A stretch of DNA of 64,000 nt, from positions 1-64,000 of the IMG/VR virus record IMGVR_UViG_3300046507_000639, one strand, 5' to 3'. Below the pieces are notes generated by a model, which had not been told where the DNA came from, ran no database searches, and worked only from the letters and a program-made list of their open reading frames with translations. A program made the position numbers and the translations under genes. Positions 7,442 to 41,866 of the stretch are shown here, one piece after another; the stretch's first letter is position 1; each line of letters opens with the position of its first letter. Origin of the DNA: a virus. Taxonomy: Duplodnaviria > Heunggongvirae > Uroviricota > Caudoviricetes.

Positions 7442-7516
7442 TGGTACTCCTACTCAGAATCGAACTGAGTCATGCCGGTGTGTGATACCGGTGCCTTCCC
7501 ACCTGGCGCTAGGAGC
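7442..7516 (-). tRNA. tRNA-Val(CAC), CCA encoded
   Basis: Acceptor GCTCCTA/TAGGAGT. Anticodon arm CCGGT-ATCACAC-ACCGG. T-loop TTCGATT. Confidence 0.6.
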
Positions 7517-7603: not shown

Positions 7604-7676
7604 TGGTCGGGGTAAGAGGAATCGAACCTCTCCACCACGGCTCCGGACCGCAGTAAAGCACCAGCTAGTCTACCCC
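7604..7676 (-). ncRNA. tRNA-like gene with atypical anticodon arm (possible Pro-CGG, C33)
   Basis: Perfect acceptor CGGGGTA/TACCCCG and T-arm AGAGG-TTCGATT-CCTCT. Best anticodon helix has two G-U pairs and loop TCCGGAG. Confidence 0.35.
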
Positions 7677-7684
7677 GTCGTAGT

Positions 7685-8127: not shown

Positions 8128-8203
8128 TGGTACTGGGCGCCTGGATCGAACAGGCTCCTCGCGGTTCACAGCCGCGCTTGCACACCAGCTACACTAGCCC
8201 AGC
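8128..8203 (-). tRNA. tRNA-His(GUG) lacking G-1 (U-1/A73), CCA encoded
   Basis: Acceptor GCTGGGC/GCCCAGT. Anticodon arm CGCGG-CTGTGAA-CCGCG. T-arm GCCTG-TTCGATC-CAGGC. Discriminator is A; the nucleotide 5' of G1 is U. Confidence 0.6.
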
Positions 8204-8402: not shown

Positions 8403-8627
8403 TCAGCACGTTCCGCACTTTATCACCCTCAGTATCTCTCGAGACGAGACCAGCTCGCACTTCGCGGTGATCTCGTCGATGCGTCTCTTGGGCACGTCGT
8501 AGTGAGGGAACTTTCCACCGTGGAACCAGGACCGGGAAATCCCGAGGTCCCTCGCCATCTCGTGGAGGTTCTCTACCGAGAACGGCTCGCAGACCAGGTG
8601 TCTCTTGCCGTCCGTCAGGTACCTCAT
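8403..8627 (-). CDS. hypothetical protein
   Basis: 74 aa ORF. Confidence 0.5.
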   Translation of the reverse strand: MRYLTDGKRHLVCEPFSVENLHEMARDLGISRSWFHGGKFPHYDVPKRRIDEITAKCELVSSREILRVIKCGTC

Positions 8628-8966: not shown

Positions 8967-9056
8967 TGGAGCACGCGACAGGACTCGAACCTGCATCAGC
9001 CTCACGGCCACTCCGTTACCTTTGTGCACGTTCGAAGCGTGCGGGGATACGCGTGC
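8967..9056 (-). ncRNA. tRNA-like RNA A (non-canonical; family of three)
   Basis: Perfect 7-bp acceptor GCACGCG/CGCGTGC. T-arm GCAGG-TTCGAGT-CCTGT. Discriminator U, then CCA. Positions 15-31 form the hairpin GCACG-CTTCGAA-CGTGC. No canonical D or anticodon arm. Confidence 0.4.
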
Positions 9057-9057
9057 A

Positions 9058-9137
9058 TGGAGGTCACGGCGGGACTCGAACCCGCATTTTCATCCATTAC
9101 CTAACTCGAGCTTCGCAAGCTCGGCGGTTACGTGACC
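9058..9137 (-). ncRNA. tRNA-like RNA B (same architecture as A)
   Basis: Acceptor GGTCACG/CGTGACC. T-arm GCGGG-TTCGAGT-CCCGC. U-CCA 3' end. Hairpin CGAGC-TTGCGAA-GCTCG at positions 15-31. Confidence 0.4.
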
Positions 9138-9142
9138 GTATG

Positions 9143-9171
9143 TGTCTATTTATTACAGATCGACGCGATTG
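9143..9171 (-). promoter_or_regulatory. promoter for tRNA-like RNAs B and A
   Basis: TTGACA-N17-TAAATA ends about 5 nt upstream of the RNA B 5' end. Confidence 0.45.
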
Positions 9172-9353
9172 TCAACGGGTTTCTTCATGTAGATCGAGAT
9201 GAGCTCGTGGAAGTCACCCTGACAGCTCTTCATCTTGTTGTACCGGTCGACGACGCCGTCGTGGGCCATCATGAACTTATCGGAGTCGCCGCTCTTGGCT
9301 ATTTCCATCAGCTTGATGAAGTCATCGGCGAGGAACACGAACGGTGCGGCCAT
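9153..9353 (-). CDS. hypothetical protein
   Basis: 66 aa ORF. Confidence 0.55.
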   Translation of the reverse strand: MAAPFVFLADDFIKLMEIAKSGDSDKFMMAHDGVVDRYNKMKSCQGDFHELISIYMKKPVDNRVDL

Positions 9354-9535
9354 CAGAGGTACATCGCTTTCTGCACGGCCTTGACCGCCTTGTCGGCTGC
9401 TTCTGCGCTGTCGAACTCACCCACGAAGTTCTCGAAGGTGACCTCGGTGCCCTCGAAGGCCGAGAACTTTCTGACGTGAGAGGTCACGAGGAACTTCCCG
9501 TGACTCTCTTGTATCTGGAACCAGGTCTTGCTCAA
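9353..9535 (-). CDS. hypothetical protein
   Basis: 60 aa ORF. Confidence 0.5.
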   Translation of the reverse strand: MSKTWFQIQESHGKFLVTSHVRKFSAFEGTEVTFENFVGEFDSAEAADKAVKAVQKAMYL

Positions 9536-9702
9536 TCGAAACGTCTCCTGACCAGGTCTTCAGCGCGGGACAGGGCTTCTTCGCGTGAACAGTACGTCGC
9601 GTTGAGGATCAGCTTGGCGTACATCTTCACGACGCCTGGGCGTGCCTTCGCCCAACTCTCGCGAGAATTCTTTTGAACCTCGTCTCGGAGGCCCTGCGAC
9701 AT
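9532..9702 (-). CDS. hypothetical protein (start at MSQGL)
   Basis: The Arg-rich N-terminal extension is rejected. Confidence 0.4.
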   Translation of the reverse strand: MSQGLRDEVQKNSRESWAKARPGVVKMYAKLILNATYCSREEALSRAEDLVRRRFD

Positions 9703-9710
9703 GACGGCAG

Positions 9711-9884
9711 TCACAGGAGCCCCTTCGGCATGTAAGGAACGAAGATGACTGTCTCTTCTCTGTCTTCGGTGTATCGGACGTCGACGGCGGTGTGCCATCT
9801 GCACTCTTCGCCGTGCTTCATGGCTCCGGACTCGTCTCTTTGGGAACCGCAGTGTGAACAGGACTCACGGGGAACTTTCTTCAC
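9711..9884 (-). CDS. small Cys/His-containing protein (57 aa, GTG start)
   Basis: SD AAGGAG sits 5 nt upstream of GTG, with a GTGA overlap to the YqeY gene stop. CSHCG..C.WH pattern. Confidence 0.4.
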   Translation of the reverse strand: MKKVPRESCSHCGSQRDESGAMKHGEECRWHTAVDVRYTEDREETVIFVPYMPKGLL

Positions 9885-10303
9885 AGGAACTCCTTAGCGA
9901 TCTTCGACGCGAGGGTGCCGTCGTACAGGCCGGCGAAGTTGTCCTTGAGGTGCTTCATCATGAGGCCCAGGTTCGACTCGTCGAGCTCGGTGAAGATCTC
10001 ACGGATCTTCTCCTCGGTCAGCTGAGTCGGCAGGTACTTCTCGATGATCCCCTTCTCGAACTCGACCATCTTGATCGCGTTCTCTGGTAGGTTCTCGATC
10101 GCGAGCAGCTCAGCGTTCTTCTTGAGGTACGACTTGAGCACAGTCACGACGTGCTGCTCGGTCAGTTCGACTCTGCCTTCTGCCGTGATGGCAGCAGACT
10201 CGATCGTGCCGATCAGGGCCGACAGGAACGCCGCGGTCGACGACTCACGAGCCTTGCGGGCTGCCAGGAAGTCGTCCTTTATCGTCTGCAGTAGATCGCT
10301 CAT
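9881..10303 (-). CDS. GatB/YqeY-domain protein
   Basis: 140 aa. FLAARKARE..LSALIGTIESA..YLKKNAELLAIENLPENAIKMVEFEKGIIEKYLPTQLTEEKIREI fits the YqeY family pattern. Confidence 0.65.
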   Translation of the reverse strand: MSDLLQTIKDDFLAARKARESSTAAFLSALIGTIESAAITAEGRVELTEQHVVTVLKSYLKKNAELLAIENLPENAIKMVEFEKGIIEKYLPTQLTEEKIREIFTELDESNLGLMMKHLKDNFAGLYDGTLASKIAKEFL

Positions 10304-10526
10304 GTTTTCTCTTCTTTATCTGTGCGTTGATGATCAGGGCGGTGTATCGACCCTCGTGCTCGACCGTTCTGGGCTCCTTACCCGTGAACACCGCGTACTC
10401 GTTCATCGGGTACTCCACGCCGTCTTCGATGACGGTGCCGACGTAGCCGTTGAGGATGCACTCGAGGCGAAAGTCGAGTATCTTCAGGACTTCACCGTAG
10501 GTGCAATTGAGCGCGTAGGTCTTCAT
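10245..10526 (-). CDS. hypothetical protein
   Basis: 93 aa. The 3' end overlaps the YqeY gene by about 59 nt. Confidence 0.4.
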   Translation of the reverse strand: MKTYALNCTYGEVLKILDFRLECILNGYVGTVIEDGVEYPMNEYAVFTGKEPRTVEHEGRYTALIINAQIKKRKHERSTADDKGRLPGSPQGS

Positions 10527-10690
10527 CTCTTCTTCCTGGGTCGCGTGTCAGTCAGTCCCGGACACAGGTCAAACAGGAGCTCGCAGAAGACCGCGAGCGG
10601 CTTCAGCAGGCCGAACGTCAGCCCAAAGAGCACGATCCGGAACGGGATGAACGGGAACTTCCACCAGTTGGCCTTGAGGAACTCGATCAC
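10523..10690 (-). CDS. small membrane protein (55 aa, GTG start)
   Basis: VIEFLKANWWKFPFIPFRIVLFGLTFGLLKPLAVFCELLF. GTGA overlap with the upstream stop. Confidence 0.4.
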   Translation of the reverse strand: MIEFLKANWWKFPFIPFRIVLFGLTFGLLKPLAVFCELLFDLCPGLTDTRPRKKR

Positions 10691-11244
10691 TTGGCGTAGT
10701 CCCACATGATCGGCAGCTCGCCGACGGTGACGGTCGCGCTCTTCTTGAAGACGAGCAGCTTCTTGTTCATGTCTTTGCGGAGGATCGCGTCCACCTCGGC
10801 CTTGAGCGCAGCGGAGTTGCACATCTTCTCGACCTTGTAGCTCGTGGCCTCGATGATGATCATGTCGAGCTCGGCCTGCGACTTGGCAGGCTCGGGCGCC
10901 GGCGTAGCTCGGGACACGACTCGAAAGAACTTGGCCGATAGGAACGGAGTCTCGATGTACGCTTCTAGCTGCGCGCGGTCGAACTTGTTGAGCTTCTTCT
11001 GCTTGCCCCGGAAGATGAGGTTGCCTGTAGGACCGCGTCCGACCTCGATCACCTCGAGCGGTTGACCCTTGTTGAAGGAGTCGTACTGCTTGTAGCCCTG
11101 GTAGTTGAACTTGACGACGTCACCGACGGCGAGCTCACTGATGTCGTCGAAGTCTCCGACGGAGACCGCGTTCACGAGTGCATTCATATCATCATCCTCA
11201 AAATTGGAAAAAAAGTCCCAGACCCACTCATCACTGTCGTTCAT
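10687..11244 (-). CDS. hypothetical protein
   Basis: 185 aa. SD GGAG. Confidence 0.65.
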   Translation of the reverse strand: MNDSDEWVWDFFSNFEDDDMNALVNAVSVGDFDDISELAVGDVVKFNYQGYKQYDSFNKGQPLEVIEVGRGPTGNLIFRGKQKKLNKFDRAQLEAYIETPFLSAKFFRVVSRATPAPEPAKSQAELDMIIIEATSYKVEKMCNSAALKAEVDAILRKDMNKKLLVFKKSATVTVGELPIMWDYAK

Positions 11245-11262
11245 CGTGTTCTCCGGGAAATT

Positions 11263-11349
11263 TGGTGCGCGCAGAGGGACTCGAACCCTCGGTGGGCTTA
11301 CGCCATCCGGTTAAGAGCCGGAACCTATCGCCGCTAAGGTGATACGCGC
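11263..11349 (-). tRNA. type-II-like tRNA (long variable arm), anticodon loop CTCTTAA, identity uncertain
   Basis: Acceptor GCGCGTA/TGCGCGC. T-arm GAGGG-TTCGAGT-CCCTC. Anticodon arm TCCGG-CTCTTAA-CCGGA. Discriminator A, then CCA. Confidence 0.45.
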
Positions 11350-11574
11350 TTAGACTTTGTTGAACCTCTGTGCGTCGTCATCCGACACGCGGAAGTCCAA
11401 GATGACTCGACCGGTGGCCTTCGACACCCGCTTGAGGTGTGCGTTGGCTTCGATCAGGACCTCCTCGTGGGACTTACCGACGTTCAGGACGTTGAAGTAG
11501 TCCGTGCCAGCGATGTTCCCCGGGAACTCGAGGTCCTTGTAGGAGTATACGAAGAGTGTGTACTTTGCGTTCAT
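11350..11574 (-). CDS. hypothetical protein
   Basis: 74 aa. Promoter 11603..11631 and SD GGAAAGGG. Confidence 0.6.
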   Translation of the reverse strand: MNAKYTLFVYSYKDLEFPGNIAGTDYFNVLNVGKSHEEVLIEANAHLKRVSKATGRVILDFRVSDDDAQRFNKV

Positions 11575-11602
11575 GATGAAGTCCCTTTCCTATCGTAGTT
11601 CC

Positions 11603-11631
11603 ATCTTAAATGGAACCGACCGGTTTGTCAA
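11603..11631 (-). promoter_or_regulatory. sigma70-type promoter (TTGACA-N17-TAAGAT)
   Basis: tgtcaa on the + strand at 11626-11631. Confidence 0.5.
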
Positions 11632-11647
11632 CTACATCTTTAAATTT

Positions 11648-11731
11648 TGGTGGGCATGGTGGGACTCGAACCCACACGCGCTAGGCACCAGGCTCTCGAC
11701 CTGGCAAGGCTACCAATTTCATCACACGCCC
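11648..11731 (-). tRNA. tRNA-Leu(GAG)-like, type II, CCA encoded (C33 in anticodon loop)
   Basis: Acceptor GGGCGTG/CATGCCC. T-arm GTGGG-TTCGAGT-CCCAC. Anticodon arm CCAGG-TCGAGAG-CCTGG. Confidence 0.45.
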
Positions 11732-11743
11732 AATTATCGCCAA

Positions 11744-11811
11744 CGTCACGACGGGATTCGAACCCGCGTTTCCCCCTGAACGGGGGCGTTCTCTCCGCTA
11801 AACTACGGGAC
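11744..11811 (-). ncRNA. degenerate tRNA-Glu(UUC)-like element, no encoded CCA
   Basis: T-arm CGGG-TTCGAAT-CCCG. Acceptor has 2 mismatches (GTCCCGT/TCGTGAC). Anticodon-like hairpin CCCC-CGTTCAG-GGGG. Short D region. Confidence 0.3.
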
Positions 11812-11904
11812 TCAGGAGTCGGTGTTCCCGGCAAGGACCGCTTTCCCCTGTGGCTCAACCTACGGGATCGGCTTGCCGACCTACCCGCCTGGGTCTACTA
11901 AACT

Positions 11905-11985
11905 TGGAGCTTCCGACTGGACTCGAACCAGCATACGCCATTACGGTTTTAACGACCGCTTAGAAGGCGGTGCCGATACGGAAGC
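11905..11985 (-). ncRNA. tRNA-like RNA C (same non-canonical family as A and B)
   Basis: Acceptor GCTTCCG/CGGAAGC. T-arm GCTGG-TTCGAGT-CCAGT. U-CCA 3' end. Hairpin ACCGC-CTTCTAA-GCGGT at positions 15-31. Confidence 0.4.
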
Positions 11986-12070
11986 ATCGAAACGTTCGAT
12001 CGAGAAAGGTTTCCCTCCCCGATGGTGTTTTATTTATACCACAGGGGAGGGAGTTTGTCAACTGATTTCT

Positions 12071-12154: not shown

Positions 12155-12345
12155 AGCAGGTTCCTCAGGTTGAGCTGGCGCACGAAGTCGCCAGCCTCGA
12201 TCACCGTGAGACCGTGGCCGAGCGCCCAGCCGTAGGCCAGGGACTCCCAGTAGTGGTCACTTTTTGGGTCCACCTCTTCTGCCTGCGTGAAGACCTCTCT
12301 GATCCAGACGAGGATCAGCTCATGCAGCGACTGCCCGTTCACGGC
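12151..12345 (-). CDS. hypothetical protein (64 aa, GTG start)
   Basis: SD AAGGAGGGA sits 4 nt upstream of GTG. The Ser/Thr/Arg-rich upstream part of ORF 12151..12528 is rejected. Confidence 0.45.
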   Translation of the reverse strand, partial: AVNGQSLHELILVWIREVFTQAEEVDPKSDHYWESLAYGWALGHGLTVIEAGDFVRQLNLRNLL

Positions 12346-12823
12346 GTCCCTCCTTCTTGCCCCCGTAGGTGCGGAAGTGGTCGGCCGCGAAGCTCGACGC
12401 AAGTGCGTCCGGCTTGGCCACCGCGTCGATGCCGCAGACGCCTCGGACGTAACCCATGGCCTCGGCGTACGCGACGTTCGAGCCGTGTTTCTTGTCCTTG
12501 TTGATGTCGACGTGCAGCTCGATCTCACGGTCGCCGATGACTTCCGCGAGCTTCAGGTACATACCGACCGAGCGGTAGACCTCATTCATCATGCGCATGC
12601 GCGGCGCGTCCTTCTTCTGGTCGTAGTCGCGCTCAGTGTCGATGTCGCCGAAGACCCGGCAGCCGTTCTTGCCGTTGATGTGCACGACGCAGACGGTCGT
12701 GTAGCGGGCGTACCAGACGCCCTCCTTCTTGAAGCGGTAGGAGTCACAGCCGATGTAGACCTTCGTCTCCGGCGTCTGCCGGGCGATGAAGTCGCGGACC
12801 TCGTCGATGTCAAATTTCTTCAT
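12320..12823 (-). CDS. hypothetical protein (possibly RNase H-like fold)
   Basis: 167 aa ORF with coding GC3. VYIGCDSYRFKKEGVWYARYTTVCVVH. Confidence 0.55.
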   Translation of the reverse strand: MKKFDIDEVRDFIARQTPETKVYIGCDSYRFKKEGVWYARYTTVCVVHINGKNGCRVFGDIDTERDYDQKKDAPRMRMMNEVYRSVGMYLKLAEVIGDREIELHVDINKDKKHGSNVAYAEAMGYVRGVCGIDAVAKPDALASSFAADHFRTYGGKKEGRRERAVAA

Positions 12824-40545: not shown

Positions 40546-41866
40546 TTGAGGTCCTTTCTCCAGTTGTGGTCTTGTCGAACACGGGCTCGTCGTTGTCGTT
40601 GGCGATGTCGTAGAACCGCATCTTGCCGCTGTCACGGCCGACGAGGAATTTCTTGTAGAAGTTGGGGTCGCCGTACCTGTTCTTGAGCTGCTTGAACATC
40701 ACCTGGTTGAGCTCCTCGAGCTCCTCCGTGACGATCAACGCTATCATCAGGTCGGCCGTCGCGGGCAGACCGAACGACTCAGAGGTGTCGGTCAGGTCGA
40801 TGTCGGATGCTCCGTAGCCTGATCGCGTGACCTGAGTCGCGCTGACGAGTGCCACGTTGAACTCGACCGCGAGCCCTCGGAGCTCTTCGGCGATGGCCTT
40901 GATGTAGGTGTAGGAGTTCACGTTTCCCGCCTTCAGTCGTGACGACGCGCAGAGGTTGATGTAGTCGACGTAGATGATGTCGGGGACGAAGTTCTTCTTC
41001 GTCTTCAGCTCGTTCAGGAGGAACCGGATGTGACCCGCGTGGGCCTGAGAAGTCGGGTACTCCTTGACGATCAGGCGTCCGAGCGTCTTCTCCTTAAGCT
41101 TGGCGATCTTCTTCTTGAAGACCTCCTTCGGCATGTCCTTGACCGAGTTCACGTTGACGTCGAGGAGGTTCGCGTCGATGCGCTCAGAGATCTTCTTCTG
41201 ACTCATCTCGAGGGTGATGTACAGGACGTTTCGCCCGTCCATCAGGTTGTTCGCGGCCTCGTGACACATGAGCATCGACTTGCCCGCGCCGGTGCCTGCC
41301 ATGTAGATGTTCAGCGTCTTCCTCGACAGGCCGCCGTGGGTGATCTTGTTCATCAGGTCGAGAGAGAACTTGATGCGCTCGTCGGTCTCGTTGTAGGAGT
41401 CAAAGCGAGCCTCGGCGTCCTCGAGGTAGTCGTGGCCAACTGACTCGTCGAAGGAGACCGCGAGGGCCTCCTGGAGCAGAGTCGGGATCGCTCCCTTGTC
41501 GAGCTTCGACTTGCCGTCGAGGATCTGGATGCTCTCGTGGATCGAGTTGTAGATCGCCTTGTCCTGGCAGAATTTCTCCGCCTGGTCGAGCAGCCAGTCC
41601 AAGTCGTTCGTCACGACCGTCGAGAGAGAACCTATCTTCTCGAGTGCTGAGTCGAAGATCGTCTGTGAGACAGACATGGTCTCCAGTTCGATCTTCAGTA
41701 TCTCTCGGTTGGGTAGCCTGTTGTACTTTCGAAAGAAAGAATCGATGAGTGAGTAGACGAGCTTGTCAGACGCGTCAGAGAAGTACTCCTCGCGGAGGTA
41801 CGGGATCGTCTTCCGAGCGAAATCCTCATTGAGGACGAGGCTCGAGAGTATGGTCTGTTCTATCAT
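40511..41866 (-). CDS. replicative DNA helicase (DnaB family, T4 gp41-like)
   Basis: Walker A GTGAGKSM. DnaB C-terminal RecA-like fold. 451 aa. Confidence 0.8.
   Translation of the reverse strand: MIEQTILSSLVLNEDFARKTIPYLREEYFSDASDKLVYSLIDSFFRKYNRLPNREILKIELETMSVSQTIFDSALEKIGSLSTVVTNDLDWLLDQAEKFCQDKAIYNSIHESIQILDGKSKLDKGAIPTLLQEALAVSFDESVGHDYLEDAEARFDSYNETDERIKFSLDLMNKITHGGLSRKTLNIYMAGTGAGKSMLMCHEAANNLMDGRNVLYITLEMSQKKISERIDANLLDVNVNSVKDMPKEVFKKKIAKLKEKTLGRLIVKEYPTSQAHAGHIRFLLNELKTKKNFVPDIIYVDYINLCASSRLKAGNVNSYTYIKAIAEELRGLAVEFNVALVSATQVTRSGYGASDIDLTDTSESFGLPATADLMIALIVTEELEELNQVMFKQLKNRYGDPNFYKKFLVGRDSGKMRFYDIANDNDEPVFDKTTTGERTSSGGKFSNLSFG

Follow-up and report, generated by a model that had tools for sequence, protein, structure and literature searches.

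Three tRNA-like genes on the minus strand

The window, i.e. the whole stretch of 64,000 nucleotides (nt) analysed here, comprises positions 1 to 64,000 of the IMG/VR virus record IMGVR_UViG_3300046507_000639 (Caudoviricetes) and carries three transfer RNA (tRNA)-like genes on its minus strand, at 8967-9056 (element A), 9058-9137 (element B) and 11905-11985 (element C). A first-pass annotation made from the sequence alone had described them, and all coordinates and sequence features given there were recovered when the sequence was read again. It had also argued from their three-way conservation that they form a family; this is supported by homologs in hundreds of phage genomes and viral contigs. 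Here, we describe the architecture of this family and argue that A, B and C are probably functional arginine tRNAs of a phage-borne class with a rewired, circularly permuted core.

The three elements share a perfect acceptor stem of 7 base pairs (bp), the T-loop TTCGAGT, a U as discriminator (U73) and an encoded CCA. A 7-nt connector starting with UA joins the acceptor strand to a perfect hairpin of 5 bp with a 7-nt loop at positions 15-31. The loops CTTCGAA, TTGCGAA and CTTCTAA carry the anticodons UCG (A), GCG (B) and UCU (C), and the hairpin is followed by GTAAYGG in each case. All three anticodons read arginine, as had been noted; in the wider family, the same architecture is also used with isoleucine anticodons. 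A and B lie in tandem with a single base (9057) between them.

A covariance model, R1, was built from 24 homologs in other phages, none of them from the window. In the window it scores C with 85.5 bits (E=2e-22), B with 44.4 bits and A with 32.7 bits (E=5e-7), compared to at most 23.1 bits for the canonical tRNAs of the window, which argues for exactly three members.

Element A (9056 to 8967, 90 nt) would be a rewired tRNA-Arg(UCG) of a long subtype. It begins with the acceptor 5' strand GCACGCG (9056-9050), U8 and A9 (9049-9048) and C11 C12 (9046-9045), the 5' strand of a short helix considered below. The anticodon stem-loop GCACG-CTTCGAA-CGTGC (9042-9026, anticodon 9035-9033) and the bulge ACAAA (9025-9021) lead to the 3' strand of the helix, GG (9020-9019), and to the D-loop-like U-AACGGA (9018-9012, motif GTAACGG). 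An extra hairpin, GGCC-GTGA-GGCT (9009-8998), is absent from the first-pass annotation. It precedes GAU (8997-8995), the T-arm GCAGG-TTCGAGT-CCTGT (8994-8978), the acceptor 3' strand CGCGTGC (8977-8971), U73 (8970) and CCA (8969-8967). Three homologs, in Stenotrophomonas phage DLP_6, Xanthomonas phage BUDD and the IMG/VR locus L024, have the same layout, and the stems of their extra hairpins, likewise placed before GAU and the T-arm, covary.

Element B (9137 to 9058, 80 nt), read as a rewired tRNA-Arg(GCG) of a short subtype, has the acceptor 5' strand GGTCACG (9137-9131), U8 A9 (9130-9129), the helix 5' strand A10 C11 C12 (9128-9126), the anticodon stem-loop CGAGC-TTGCGAA-GCTCG (9123-9107, anticodon 9116-9114) and the bulge AGUUA (9106-9102). 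The helix 3' strand GGU (9101-9099), AAUGGA (9098-9093, motif GTAATGG) and the linker UGAAAAU (9092-9086) precede the T-arm GCGGG-TTCGAGT-CCCGC (9085-9069), the acceptor 3' strand CGTGACC (9068-9062), U73 (9061) and CCA (9060-9058). Xanthomonas phage XacN1 and contigs from IMG/VR and Rhizobiales have close homologs of B, with ACG as anticodon.

Element C (11985 to 11905, 81 nt) fits a rewired tRNA-Arg(UCU) of a long-bulge subtype. Here the acceptor 5' strand is GCTTCCG (11985-11979), followed by U8 A9 (11978-11977), the helix 5' strand C11 G12 G13 (11975-11973), the anticodon stem-loop ACCGC-CTTCTAA-GCGGT (11971-11955, anticodon 11964-11962) and the bulge CGUUAAAA (11954-11947). The chain returns through the helix 3' strand CCG (11946-11944), U-AAUGGC (11943-11937, motif GTAATGG) and GUAU (11936-11933) to the T-arm GCTGG-TTCGAGT-CCAGT (11932-11916), the acceptor 3' strand CGGAAGC (11915-11909), U73 (11908) and CCA (11907-11905).

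Standard tRNA searches

The earlier observation that the elements fold neither as class I nor as class II tRNAs was borne out by ARAGORN and by Infernal with Rfam models. ARAGORN reports only B, as tRNA-Arg(gcg), with 3/7 mismatches in the acceptor and a 'D-arm' built from the true acceptor strand; its standard, mitochondrial, relaxed and intron modes gave no acceptable canonical or intron-containing fold of A, B or C. In mitochondrial mode, C was called a 'stop(tta)' tRNA with the bulge taken as anticodon; the pairing is not conserved in homologs and the call was rejected. In a search of the whole window, the Rfam tRNA model matched none of the three. When 3.2 kb were searched, B scored 36.2 bits (gathering threshold 29), A 21.4 bits with the model for selenocysteine tRNA (tRNA-Sec), and C gave nothing. 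B fits the Rfam tRNA model only with the 15 D-arm positions deleted altogether and with an insertion of 18 nt in the variable region.

Could the hand parse be wrong and the elements be ordinary cloverleaf tRNAs, for instance ones with an intron or an odd D-arm? The ARAGORN call of B and the annotation of some homologs as tRNA-Val(aac) or tRNA-Leu(taa) would speak for it. However, the call needs the mismatched acceptor and the borrowed strand, the intron mode adds nothing, and Infernal has to delete the D-arm completely. The Val and Leu labels, which we rejected, take the bulge CGUUAAN as anticodon loop, have no conserved stem and ignore the perfect UCU loop. The way in which the tools misfold or miss the genes indicates that the first hand parse was right, and a misparse is very improbable.

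Inspection of the individual tRNA parts gave a consistent picture. There is no D-arm hairpin (10-13:22-25) between position 9 and the anticodon arm, only 7 nt lying between the acceptor and the anticodon stem, and the family alignment contains no cloverleaf D hairpin between positions 9 and 26 with covariation support. The T-arm (5-bp stem, 7-nt loop UUCRANY) is present and 100% paired in the family. The anticodon arm has U33 and a purine at 37, is 95.7% paired, and all five pairs covary. The acceptor stem is 98.9% paired across 51 homologs and all seven pairs covary. ARAGORN calls overlap only 3 of the 128 family genes across the collected loci, and ARAGORN, Rfam and covariance-model searches found no tRNA-Arg of canonical type in the window.

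Covariation of an enclosing helix

It had been stated that no second arm can be folded after the anticodon hairpin. This is not entirely correct: a short helix, in which positions 10/11 to 12/13 pair with two to three bases 5' of UAAYGG, surrounds the anticodon hairpin. Since the helix encloses the anticodon arm, the junction would be three-way. The alignment used for this analysis had just two anchors, the acceptor end and the UAAY motif, and was thus independent of pairing; it was padded with N. A MAFFT alignment of both subtypes was set aside because the subtypes were shifted against each other in the bulge.

Among 61 sequences, positions 11, 12 and 13 pair with the three bases 5' of the motif in 100%, 98% and 75%, with 3, 4 and 3 pair types, respectively. 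All three pairs change on both sides; position 12 alone has all Watson-Crick types (C-G 20, U-A 23, A-U 7, G-C 10). No other register comes near at positions 11 and 12 together. In a formal count with 51 sequences, 97.1% of the cells are paired, compared to 61.4% in shuffles, and the covariation score is 0.915, compared to 0.09-0.16 for slid partners. Altogether, compensatory changes are found in four helices. The minimum free energy (MFE) fold of B alone, calculated with RNAfold, reproduces the topology (z = -3.2).

D-loop-like motif and tertiary contacts

Canonical tRNA-Arg of the same phages reads GCTC-AACTGGATA-GAGC, and the counterpart in the family is GAG-T-AACTGGAGTA-T, directly before the T-stem. 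The motif U-A-A-Y-(U)-G-G thus matches the D-loop of canonical tRNA-Arg and, as judged from this match, is to be read as a D-loop. Positions were assigned as A14, A15, Y16, (U17), G18, G19 and N20, with the base just 5' of the T-stem as 48.

With this numbering, the nucleotides that make the tertiary contacts of a tRNA (U8, A14, R15:Y48, G18, G19 and C56) are all present, in an altered chain order. U8 and A14 are invariant (96/96). Positions 15:48 are A:U in about 90 members. Two unrelated members have G:C instead, with only about six differences separating one of the two from a close relative. Positions 19:56 are G:C, but A:U in one lineage. By their sequence, 8:14, 15:48 and 19:56 correspond to the canonical reverse-Hoogsteen, Levitt and elbow pairs.

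Distribution and anticodons of the family

Scans of IMG/VR and INPHARED without an anticodon constraint yielded about 100 distinct family sequences and also picked up three Rhizobiales genomes. Every match with intact stems in the first IMG/VR scan, in which the anticodon was unconstrained, was an Arg type; the other matches, about 40, were coding sequence without stems. The Ile anticodons were added by broader scans. A second IMG/VR scan with GGTAAYGGA...ATGCAGGTTC returned one new member, and nearly everything else was Gly-rich coding sequence or canonical tRNA-Cys/Leu. An inventory of 200 loci with R1 contained 90 unique family sequences with the anticodons UCU (46), UAU (18), ACG (12), GAU (7), UCG (3), CCU (2) and CAU (1), and one weak, doubtful GUA. 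Other apparent anticodons (GCT, TGA, GAC and others) came from permissive parsing and were discarded as canonical tRNAs out of register. Counting GCG of the window, there are eight anticodons, all Arg or Ile; single substitutions connect all of them, and the step from UCU to UAU is the only one that changes the amino acid.

These data bear on the idea that the genes encode stable small RNAs with another role (regulatory, primers or processing signals) that merely kept tRNA-like ends, as the T5 and T4 species. The curated record of T5 indeed lists several 'tRNA-like stable RNAs of unknown function', and the 5' end of one of them, 'RNAX', holds a relic of the family without anticodon hairpin. 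On the other hand, the anticodon loop follows the tRNA rules (U33, purine 37) in every member, the anticodons are restricted to the eight for Arg or Ile, the sizes (75-93 nt) are those of tRNAs and, as described below, synthetase identity elements correlate with the anticodon. We consider a role as stable RNA improbable, and the likeness to T4 species 1 and 2 RNAs proposed in the first-pass annotation found no support. The T5 relic itself (locus L209, 21433-21504, minus strand; record positions 41432-41503) is a degenerate family member that keeps the acceptor GCCGACC/GGTCGGT, CCG-T-AACTGG-T-GGAAGAT and a canonical T-arm. The tRNA-Arg(UCU) of T5 is a normal cloverleaf.

The element region gave no match to phages with megablast. 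In distant BLAST searches, Stenotrophomonas phage DLP_6 and the Xanthomonas phages BUDD, X1, XacN1 and Xoo-sp13 proved to have homologs of A and B, all of them unannotated. Homologs of C were found in 221 phage records, and a coliphage query matched 270 phage records, including Felix O1-like, phi92-like and 121Q-like phages, several Klebsiella phages and Streptomyces phages. The window is nearest to Rhizobium phage RHph_I1_18 (ribonucleotide reductase 63.5% identical), whose own homolog of C shares the acceptor stem. None of 60 sampled records calls the gene tRNA-Arg; in most the site carries no feature, and a small number give tRNA-OTHER, tRNA or tRNA-Leu. A Streptomyces record with a homolog of C labels it tRNA-Val.

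In 185,579 species genomes, only three true members were detected, all in Rhizobiales and one identical to a viral contig, and 5,426 complete E. coli genomes, chromosomes and prophages included, contained no homolog of the family. The family is therefore phage-borne and almost absent from bacterial genomes, a statement that includes no GTDB-wide scan aimed at the UCU subtype. A connection with ileZ/argN/argO of Shiga toxin (Stx) phages was dropped, the E. coli genomes having no homolog. The published 'Arg AGA' tRNA of phage rV5 (PMC3606486) was considered as a possible member, but the rV5 region examined was without tRNAs; PHB05, supposed to be a relative of rV5, turned out to be phi92-like.

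Decaying tRNA pseudogenes that lost the D-arm would explain the few tRNA-OTHER entries and the degenerate relic in T5. However, the same architecture is present in phages of Actinobacteria, Alpha- and Gammaproteobacteria and Campylobacter, the four helices show compensatory changes, and the tertiary nucleotides are invariant. That A, B and C are decaying genes is very unlikely.

Two further RNAs are less clear. At locus L190 (10875-10968, minus strand), a 94-nt RNA with the Tyr loop CUGUAAA has the same layout, with a 17-nt bulge and UAGUGGG (29.8 bits); if real, it extends the architecture to a class II tRNA with its variable arm in the bulge. At L159 (10697-10764, plus strand), a 68-nt tRNA-like RNA with a UCU loop (34.1 bits) lacks both D-arm and UAAYGG and may be a further reduced variant.

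Identity nucleotides, tRNA arrays and codon use

At position 20, directly after G18 G19, 64 of 66 Arg members have A and 24 of 26 Ile members have U (p=4e-19), and A73 is found in 26/26 members with Ile anticodon. A20 is the main determinant for bacterial arginyl-tRNA synthetase (ArgRS), and A73 is a determinant common to the Ile, Val and Met identities (Giege and Eriani, PMC9976931). A decoy or a pseudogene would have no reason to keep nucleotides that track the anticodon class in this way.

The family genes sit inside tRNA arrays. In phage alia, one occupies an unannotated gap of a 15-tRNA array without any other tRNA-Arg. Arrays with a rewired UCU gene rarely have a canonical UCU gene (2/34, compared to 17/49 arrays without a rewired gene; p=0.003). 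For ACG the direction is the same, but not significant (2/15 versus 24/68), and for UAU there is no difference (3/24 versus 10/59). Side observations in such arrays are a 93-nt tRNA-Ile(UAU) with canonical D-arm and long variable arm at locus L020 (3679-3771, minus strand), directly upstream of two rewired genes (ACG and UCU), and, in Stenotrophomonas phage DLP_6, an unannotated tRNA-Asp(GUC) that ARAGORN finds directly after the rewired Arg gene (L001, 2597-2674, plus strand). The record of the latter phage calls a Val-UAC gene a pseudogene.

In the open reading frames (ORFs) of the window, the Arg codons are distributed as CGC 40%, CGG 17%, AGG 15%, CGA 14%, CGU 10% and AGA 4%. By their anticodons, GCG, UCG and UCU together can read all six.

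Could the RNAs act outside translation, as the first-pass annotation had considered in naming decoys for a host nuclease? As mimics, they would be decoys or sponges that show an Arg or Ile anticodon loop to tRNA-targeting nucleases or defence proteins and so shield the real tRNAs. The loops CUACGAA, CUUCUAA and CUGAUAA match the anticodon loops of host-type isoacceptors exactly, a canonical tRNA of equal anticodon stands beside the rewired one in some phages, the altered core could block productive use and, according to passages of two reports (PMC10264068, PMC12409363), phage tRNAs counter tRNA-targeting defences. However, a decoy needs no synthetase identity elements, yet A20/U20 and A73 follow the anticodon class almost perfectly. 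The acceptor stem, discriminator, CCA, the T-arm that binds EF-Tu and all contacts of the L-shape are conserved, the rewired UCU gene is usually the sole UCU tRNA of its array, and the three genes of the window are its only Arg tRNAs and cover six codons. The identity nucleotides in particular disfavour decoys, which we regard as an unlikely explanation.

Promoter-like sites and neighbouring genes

The promoter that had been assigned to B and A is only partly supported. A perfect TTGACA (9175..9170) is followed after 17 nt by TAAATA (9152..9147), giving a putative site at 9147..9175 on the minus strand, with 9 nt between its end and the first base of B; owing to its weak -10 box, the site is not flagged by a consensus scan. 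A second promoter-like site on the minus strand (12033..12061), read from the sequence about 48 nt upstream of C, consists of TTGACA (12061-12056), 17 nt and TATAAA (12038-12033), and goes unflagged because the scan requires T at position 6 of the -10 box. GTTGACAA-N16-TAnAAn occurs at 12061, 11631, 9175 and 8763, and the scan flags 11631 and 8763. An inverted repeat, CTCCCTCCCC (12053-12044) and GGGGAGGGA (12020-12012) on the minus strand, brackets the -10 box of the C site; this repeat (12012-12053) could be an operator.

Between the rewired tRNA genes lies a YqeY-like ORF (9881-10303, minus strand; 140 amino acids; Pfam PF09424, 6.7e-15). YqeY is a paralog of the tail domain of GatB, and the ORF is homologous to T5.081, a 'tRNA amidotransferase' (30% identity, E=1e-12) encoded just upstream of the T5 relic. 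As a dedicated partner of the family it was rejected: there is no co-occurrence across 209 loci, T5.081 being the sole parallel. The tRNA region is flanked by an RNase H-like ORF (12320-12823, minus strand; PF04308, 9.4e-15) and a DUF4031 ORF (8403-8627, minus strand; PF13223, 1.3e-10).

Among the other tRNAs of the window, several have weak D-stems, and the ARAGORN calls Val-CAC (7442-7516), Pro-CGG (7604-7677) and His-GUG (8128-8203), all on the minus strand, are below the Rfam gathering score in the whole-window search. A tRNA-Lys(CUU) (11263-11349, minus strand; 87 nt) has one extra base following position 7 and, unusually for a bacterial-type tRNA-Lys, a long variable arm, GGC-GUAA-GCC. 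The tRNA-His (8128-8203) has A73 and no encoded G-1, as is typical of the alpha-proteobacterial type (Mukai et al., PMC5389517), which fits a Rhizobiales-type host.

Discussion

The architecture with its covarying helices, the conservation of tertiary contacts, the identity nucleotides and the placement in tRNA arrays are most plausibly explained by functional Arg tRNAs with a rewired core. Of the options offered in the first-pass annotation, D-arm-replaced tRNAs come closest, with the modification that D-stem and D-loop are apparently not lost but reconnected around the anticodon arm. The chain would run from the 7-bp acceptor strand through U8-A9 into one strand of a short, 2-4 bp, D-stem-like helix and from there directly into a normal 5-bp/7-nt anticodon arm. 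It would come back through a bulge of 5-8 nt, which replaces the variable loop, to the other strand of the helix and then to the D-loop-like A14-A15-Y-(U)-G18-G19-A20. A short linker, with the extra hairpin in A, would end at U48 and be followed by the canonical T-arm, the acceptor 3' strand, the discriminator and CCA. In such a topology, the 10-48 domain would be circularly permuted, its new ends lying between 21 and 22.

In three dimensions, the strand after U8-A9 would take the place of 22-25 and enter the anticodon stem, and the returning strand would take the place of 10-13 and enter the D-loop. Since U8:A14, R15:Y48, G18:pseudouridine 55 and G19:C56 are kept, we infer a normal L-shape. 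RNase P and 3' processing would then release the RNAs from the transcript, the host ArgRS would charge them by way of A20, C35 and G/U36, and they would serve in decoding on the ribosome.

Several observations weigh against functional rewired tRNAs. Element C has C at the A20 position, and all three window elements have U73, although the usual bacterial Arg discriminator is A/G73. Arrays with a rewired GAU gene usually also have a canonical one (6/8, compared to 31/75), and Stenotrophomonas phage DLP_6 has a canonical and a rewired ACG gene; such redundancy of the same anticodon would also suit a role outside translation. Pair 13:42 is unpaired in the ACG subtype, which includes A and B, so that the helix has 2-3 bp or, in A, 2 bp and a U.U. 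The enclosing helix is thermodynamically weak, and the single-sequence MFE folds of A and C pick other structures. RNAalifold recovers the other three helices, but not the 3-bp enclosing helix, which consequently rests on covariation and not on energy. The covariation of the tertiary pairs comes from three lineages only. Motif-based scans impose part of the conservation that is observed, and the family sequences are related, so that the counts overstate the number of independent events.

As to the selective advantage of the rewiring, the one candidate that we can put forward is escape, and it is a tentative one with rather low odds. It is tempting to speculate that the rewiring persists by hiding functional elongator tRNAs from proteins whose docking site on tRNA-Arg and tRNA-Ile is the canonical D-arm or elbow. 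Nucleases of host defence or toxin systems are candidates, as are the phage's own enzymes that destroy host tRNAs, and decoding of Arg and Ile codons would go on while cloverleaf tRNAs are destroyed. If true, the bacterial ArgRS, isoleucyl-tRNA synthetase (IleRS), EF-Tu and ribosome would accept secondary structures other than the cloverleaf.

To our knowledge, cytoplasmic and bacterial tRNAs are regarded as cloverleaves throughout, and the exceptions described are truncated mitochondrial tRNAs and stem-length variants. The family would be an exception of another kind, with the same parts and tertiary contacts, but a different connectivity of the chain. It would offer a natural test of the tRNA topology needed by synthetases, RNase P, modification enzymes, EF-Tu and the ribosome, and it is carried by hundreds of sequenced phages, among them coliphages of the Felix O1-like, phi92-like and 121Q-like types, for which laboratory E. 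coli serves as host. Because standard annotation misses the family almost completely, phage tRNA repertoires and analyses of codon compensation are systematically short of Arg and Ile tRNAs. A possible use is as scaffold for orthogonal or nuclease-resistant tRNAs.

Comparison with known systems

As far as could be established, the rewired architecture is new. Searches of full-text literature, including strings of the signature sequence, gave no description of it; most subscription journals lie outside this coverage, and an earlier account is possible. A 2020 review of non-canonical tRNAs mentions neither phages nor a permuted core (PMC7609411). The nearest overlap in the literature is possibly 'DNAVirus_2961', an uncharacterised candidate RNA that, in a passage of Fremin et al. 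2023 (PMC10690425), sometimes overlaps ARAGORN tRNA-Arg calls.

The stable RNAs of T5 (RNA1-3 and RNAX) and T4 (species 1 and 2) are also encoded in phage tRNA clusters. However, these RNAs have 100-700 nt and no recognised anticodon arm, the T4 species being set apart by description, whereas A, B and C are 80-90 nt long and have one. The D-arm-lacking mitochondrial tRNA-Ser(AGY/UCU) and the armless tRNAs of nematodes resemble the family in having no D hairpin and an anticodon arm that starts a few nt after position 7. In mitochondrial D-armless tRNAs, a loop without structure stands in for the D-arm, the T-loops are degenerate, the G18G19/T-loop lock is missing and specialised factors are needed (PMC7609411, PMC6158502). 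In contrast, the family keeps the UAAY(U)GG motif, the covarying helix and a canonical T-loop, and is found with ordinary bacterial hosts; with these three features kept, its members are not of the mitochondrial type.

Allo-tRNAs, 8/4 or 9/3 tRNAs, were likewise mined from genomes and metagenomes, are missed or mislabelled by standard tools and in some cases lie in tRNA clusters of alpha-proteobacterial phages. They alter the split of the 12-bp acceptor/T branch and keep the D-arm (Mukai et al. 2017, PMC5389517), whereas all members of the family have a 7/5 branch and it is the D/anticodon domain that is rewired. The extra hairpin of A and its homologs, just upstream of U48 and the T-arm, lies at the site of the variable arm of class II tRNAs (Leu, Ser, Tyr). 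Class II tRNAs, however, have a normal D-arm, and the extra hairpin is missing from B, C and most of the family.

A segment order that departs from that of the cloverleaf is also found in the permuted tRNA genes of Cyanidioschyzon merolae and other algae, in which, as reportedly described by Soma et al. in 2007, the gene starts with the 3' half and a canonical tRNA is regained through a circular intermediate. In the phage family, however, the termini are normal, with perfectly paired acceptor strands at both ends, and only the internal 10-48 domain is permuted, presumably also in the mature RNA.

The closest likeness in parts is that to canonical tRNA-Arg and tRNA-Ile (RF00005). Acceptor stem, discriminator, CCA, T-arm and an anticodon arm with the loops of host isoacceptors are shared, as are U8, A14, A15, G18, G19, A20 (Arg), U48 and A73 (Ile), and the location in tRNA arrays. 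The difference is in the core: the family has no D hairpin, its D-stem-like strands lie on either side of the anticodon arm and not of the D-loop, the D-loop-like segment comes after the helix and leads into the T-arm, the variable loop has become a bulge inside a long arm, and the junction would be three-way instead of four-way.

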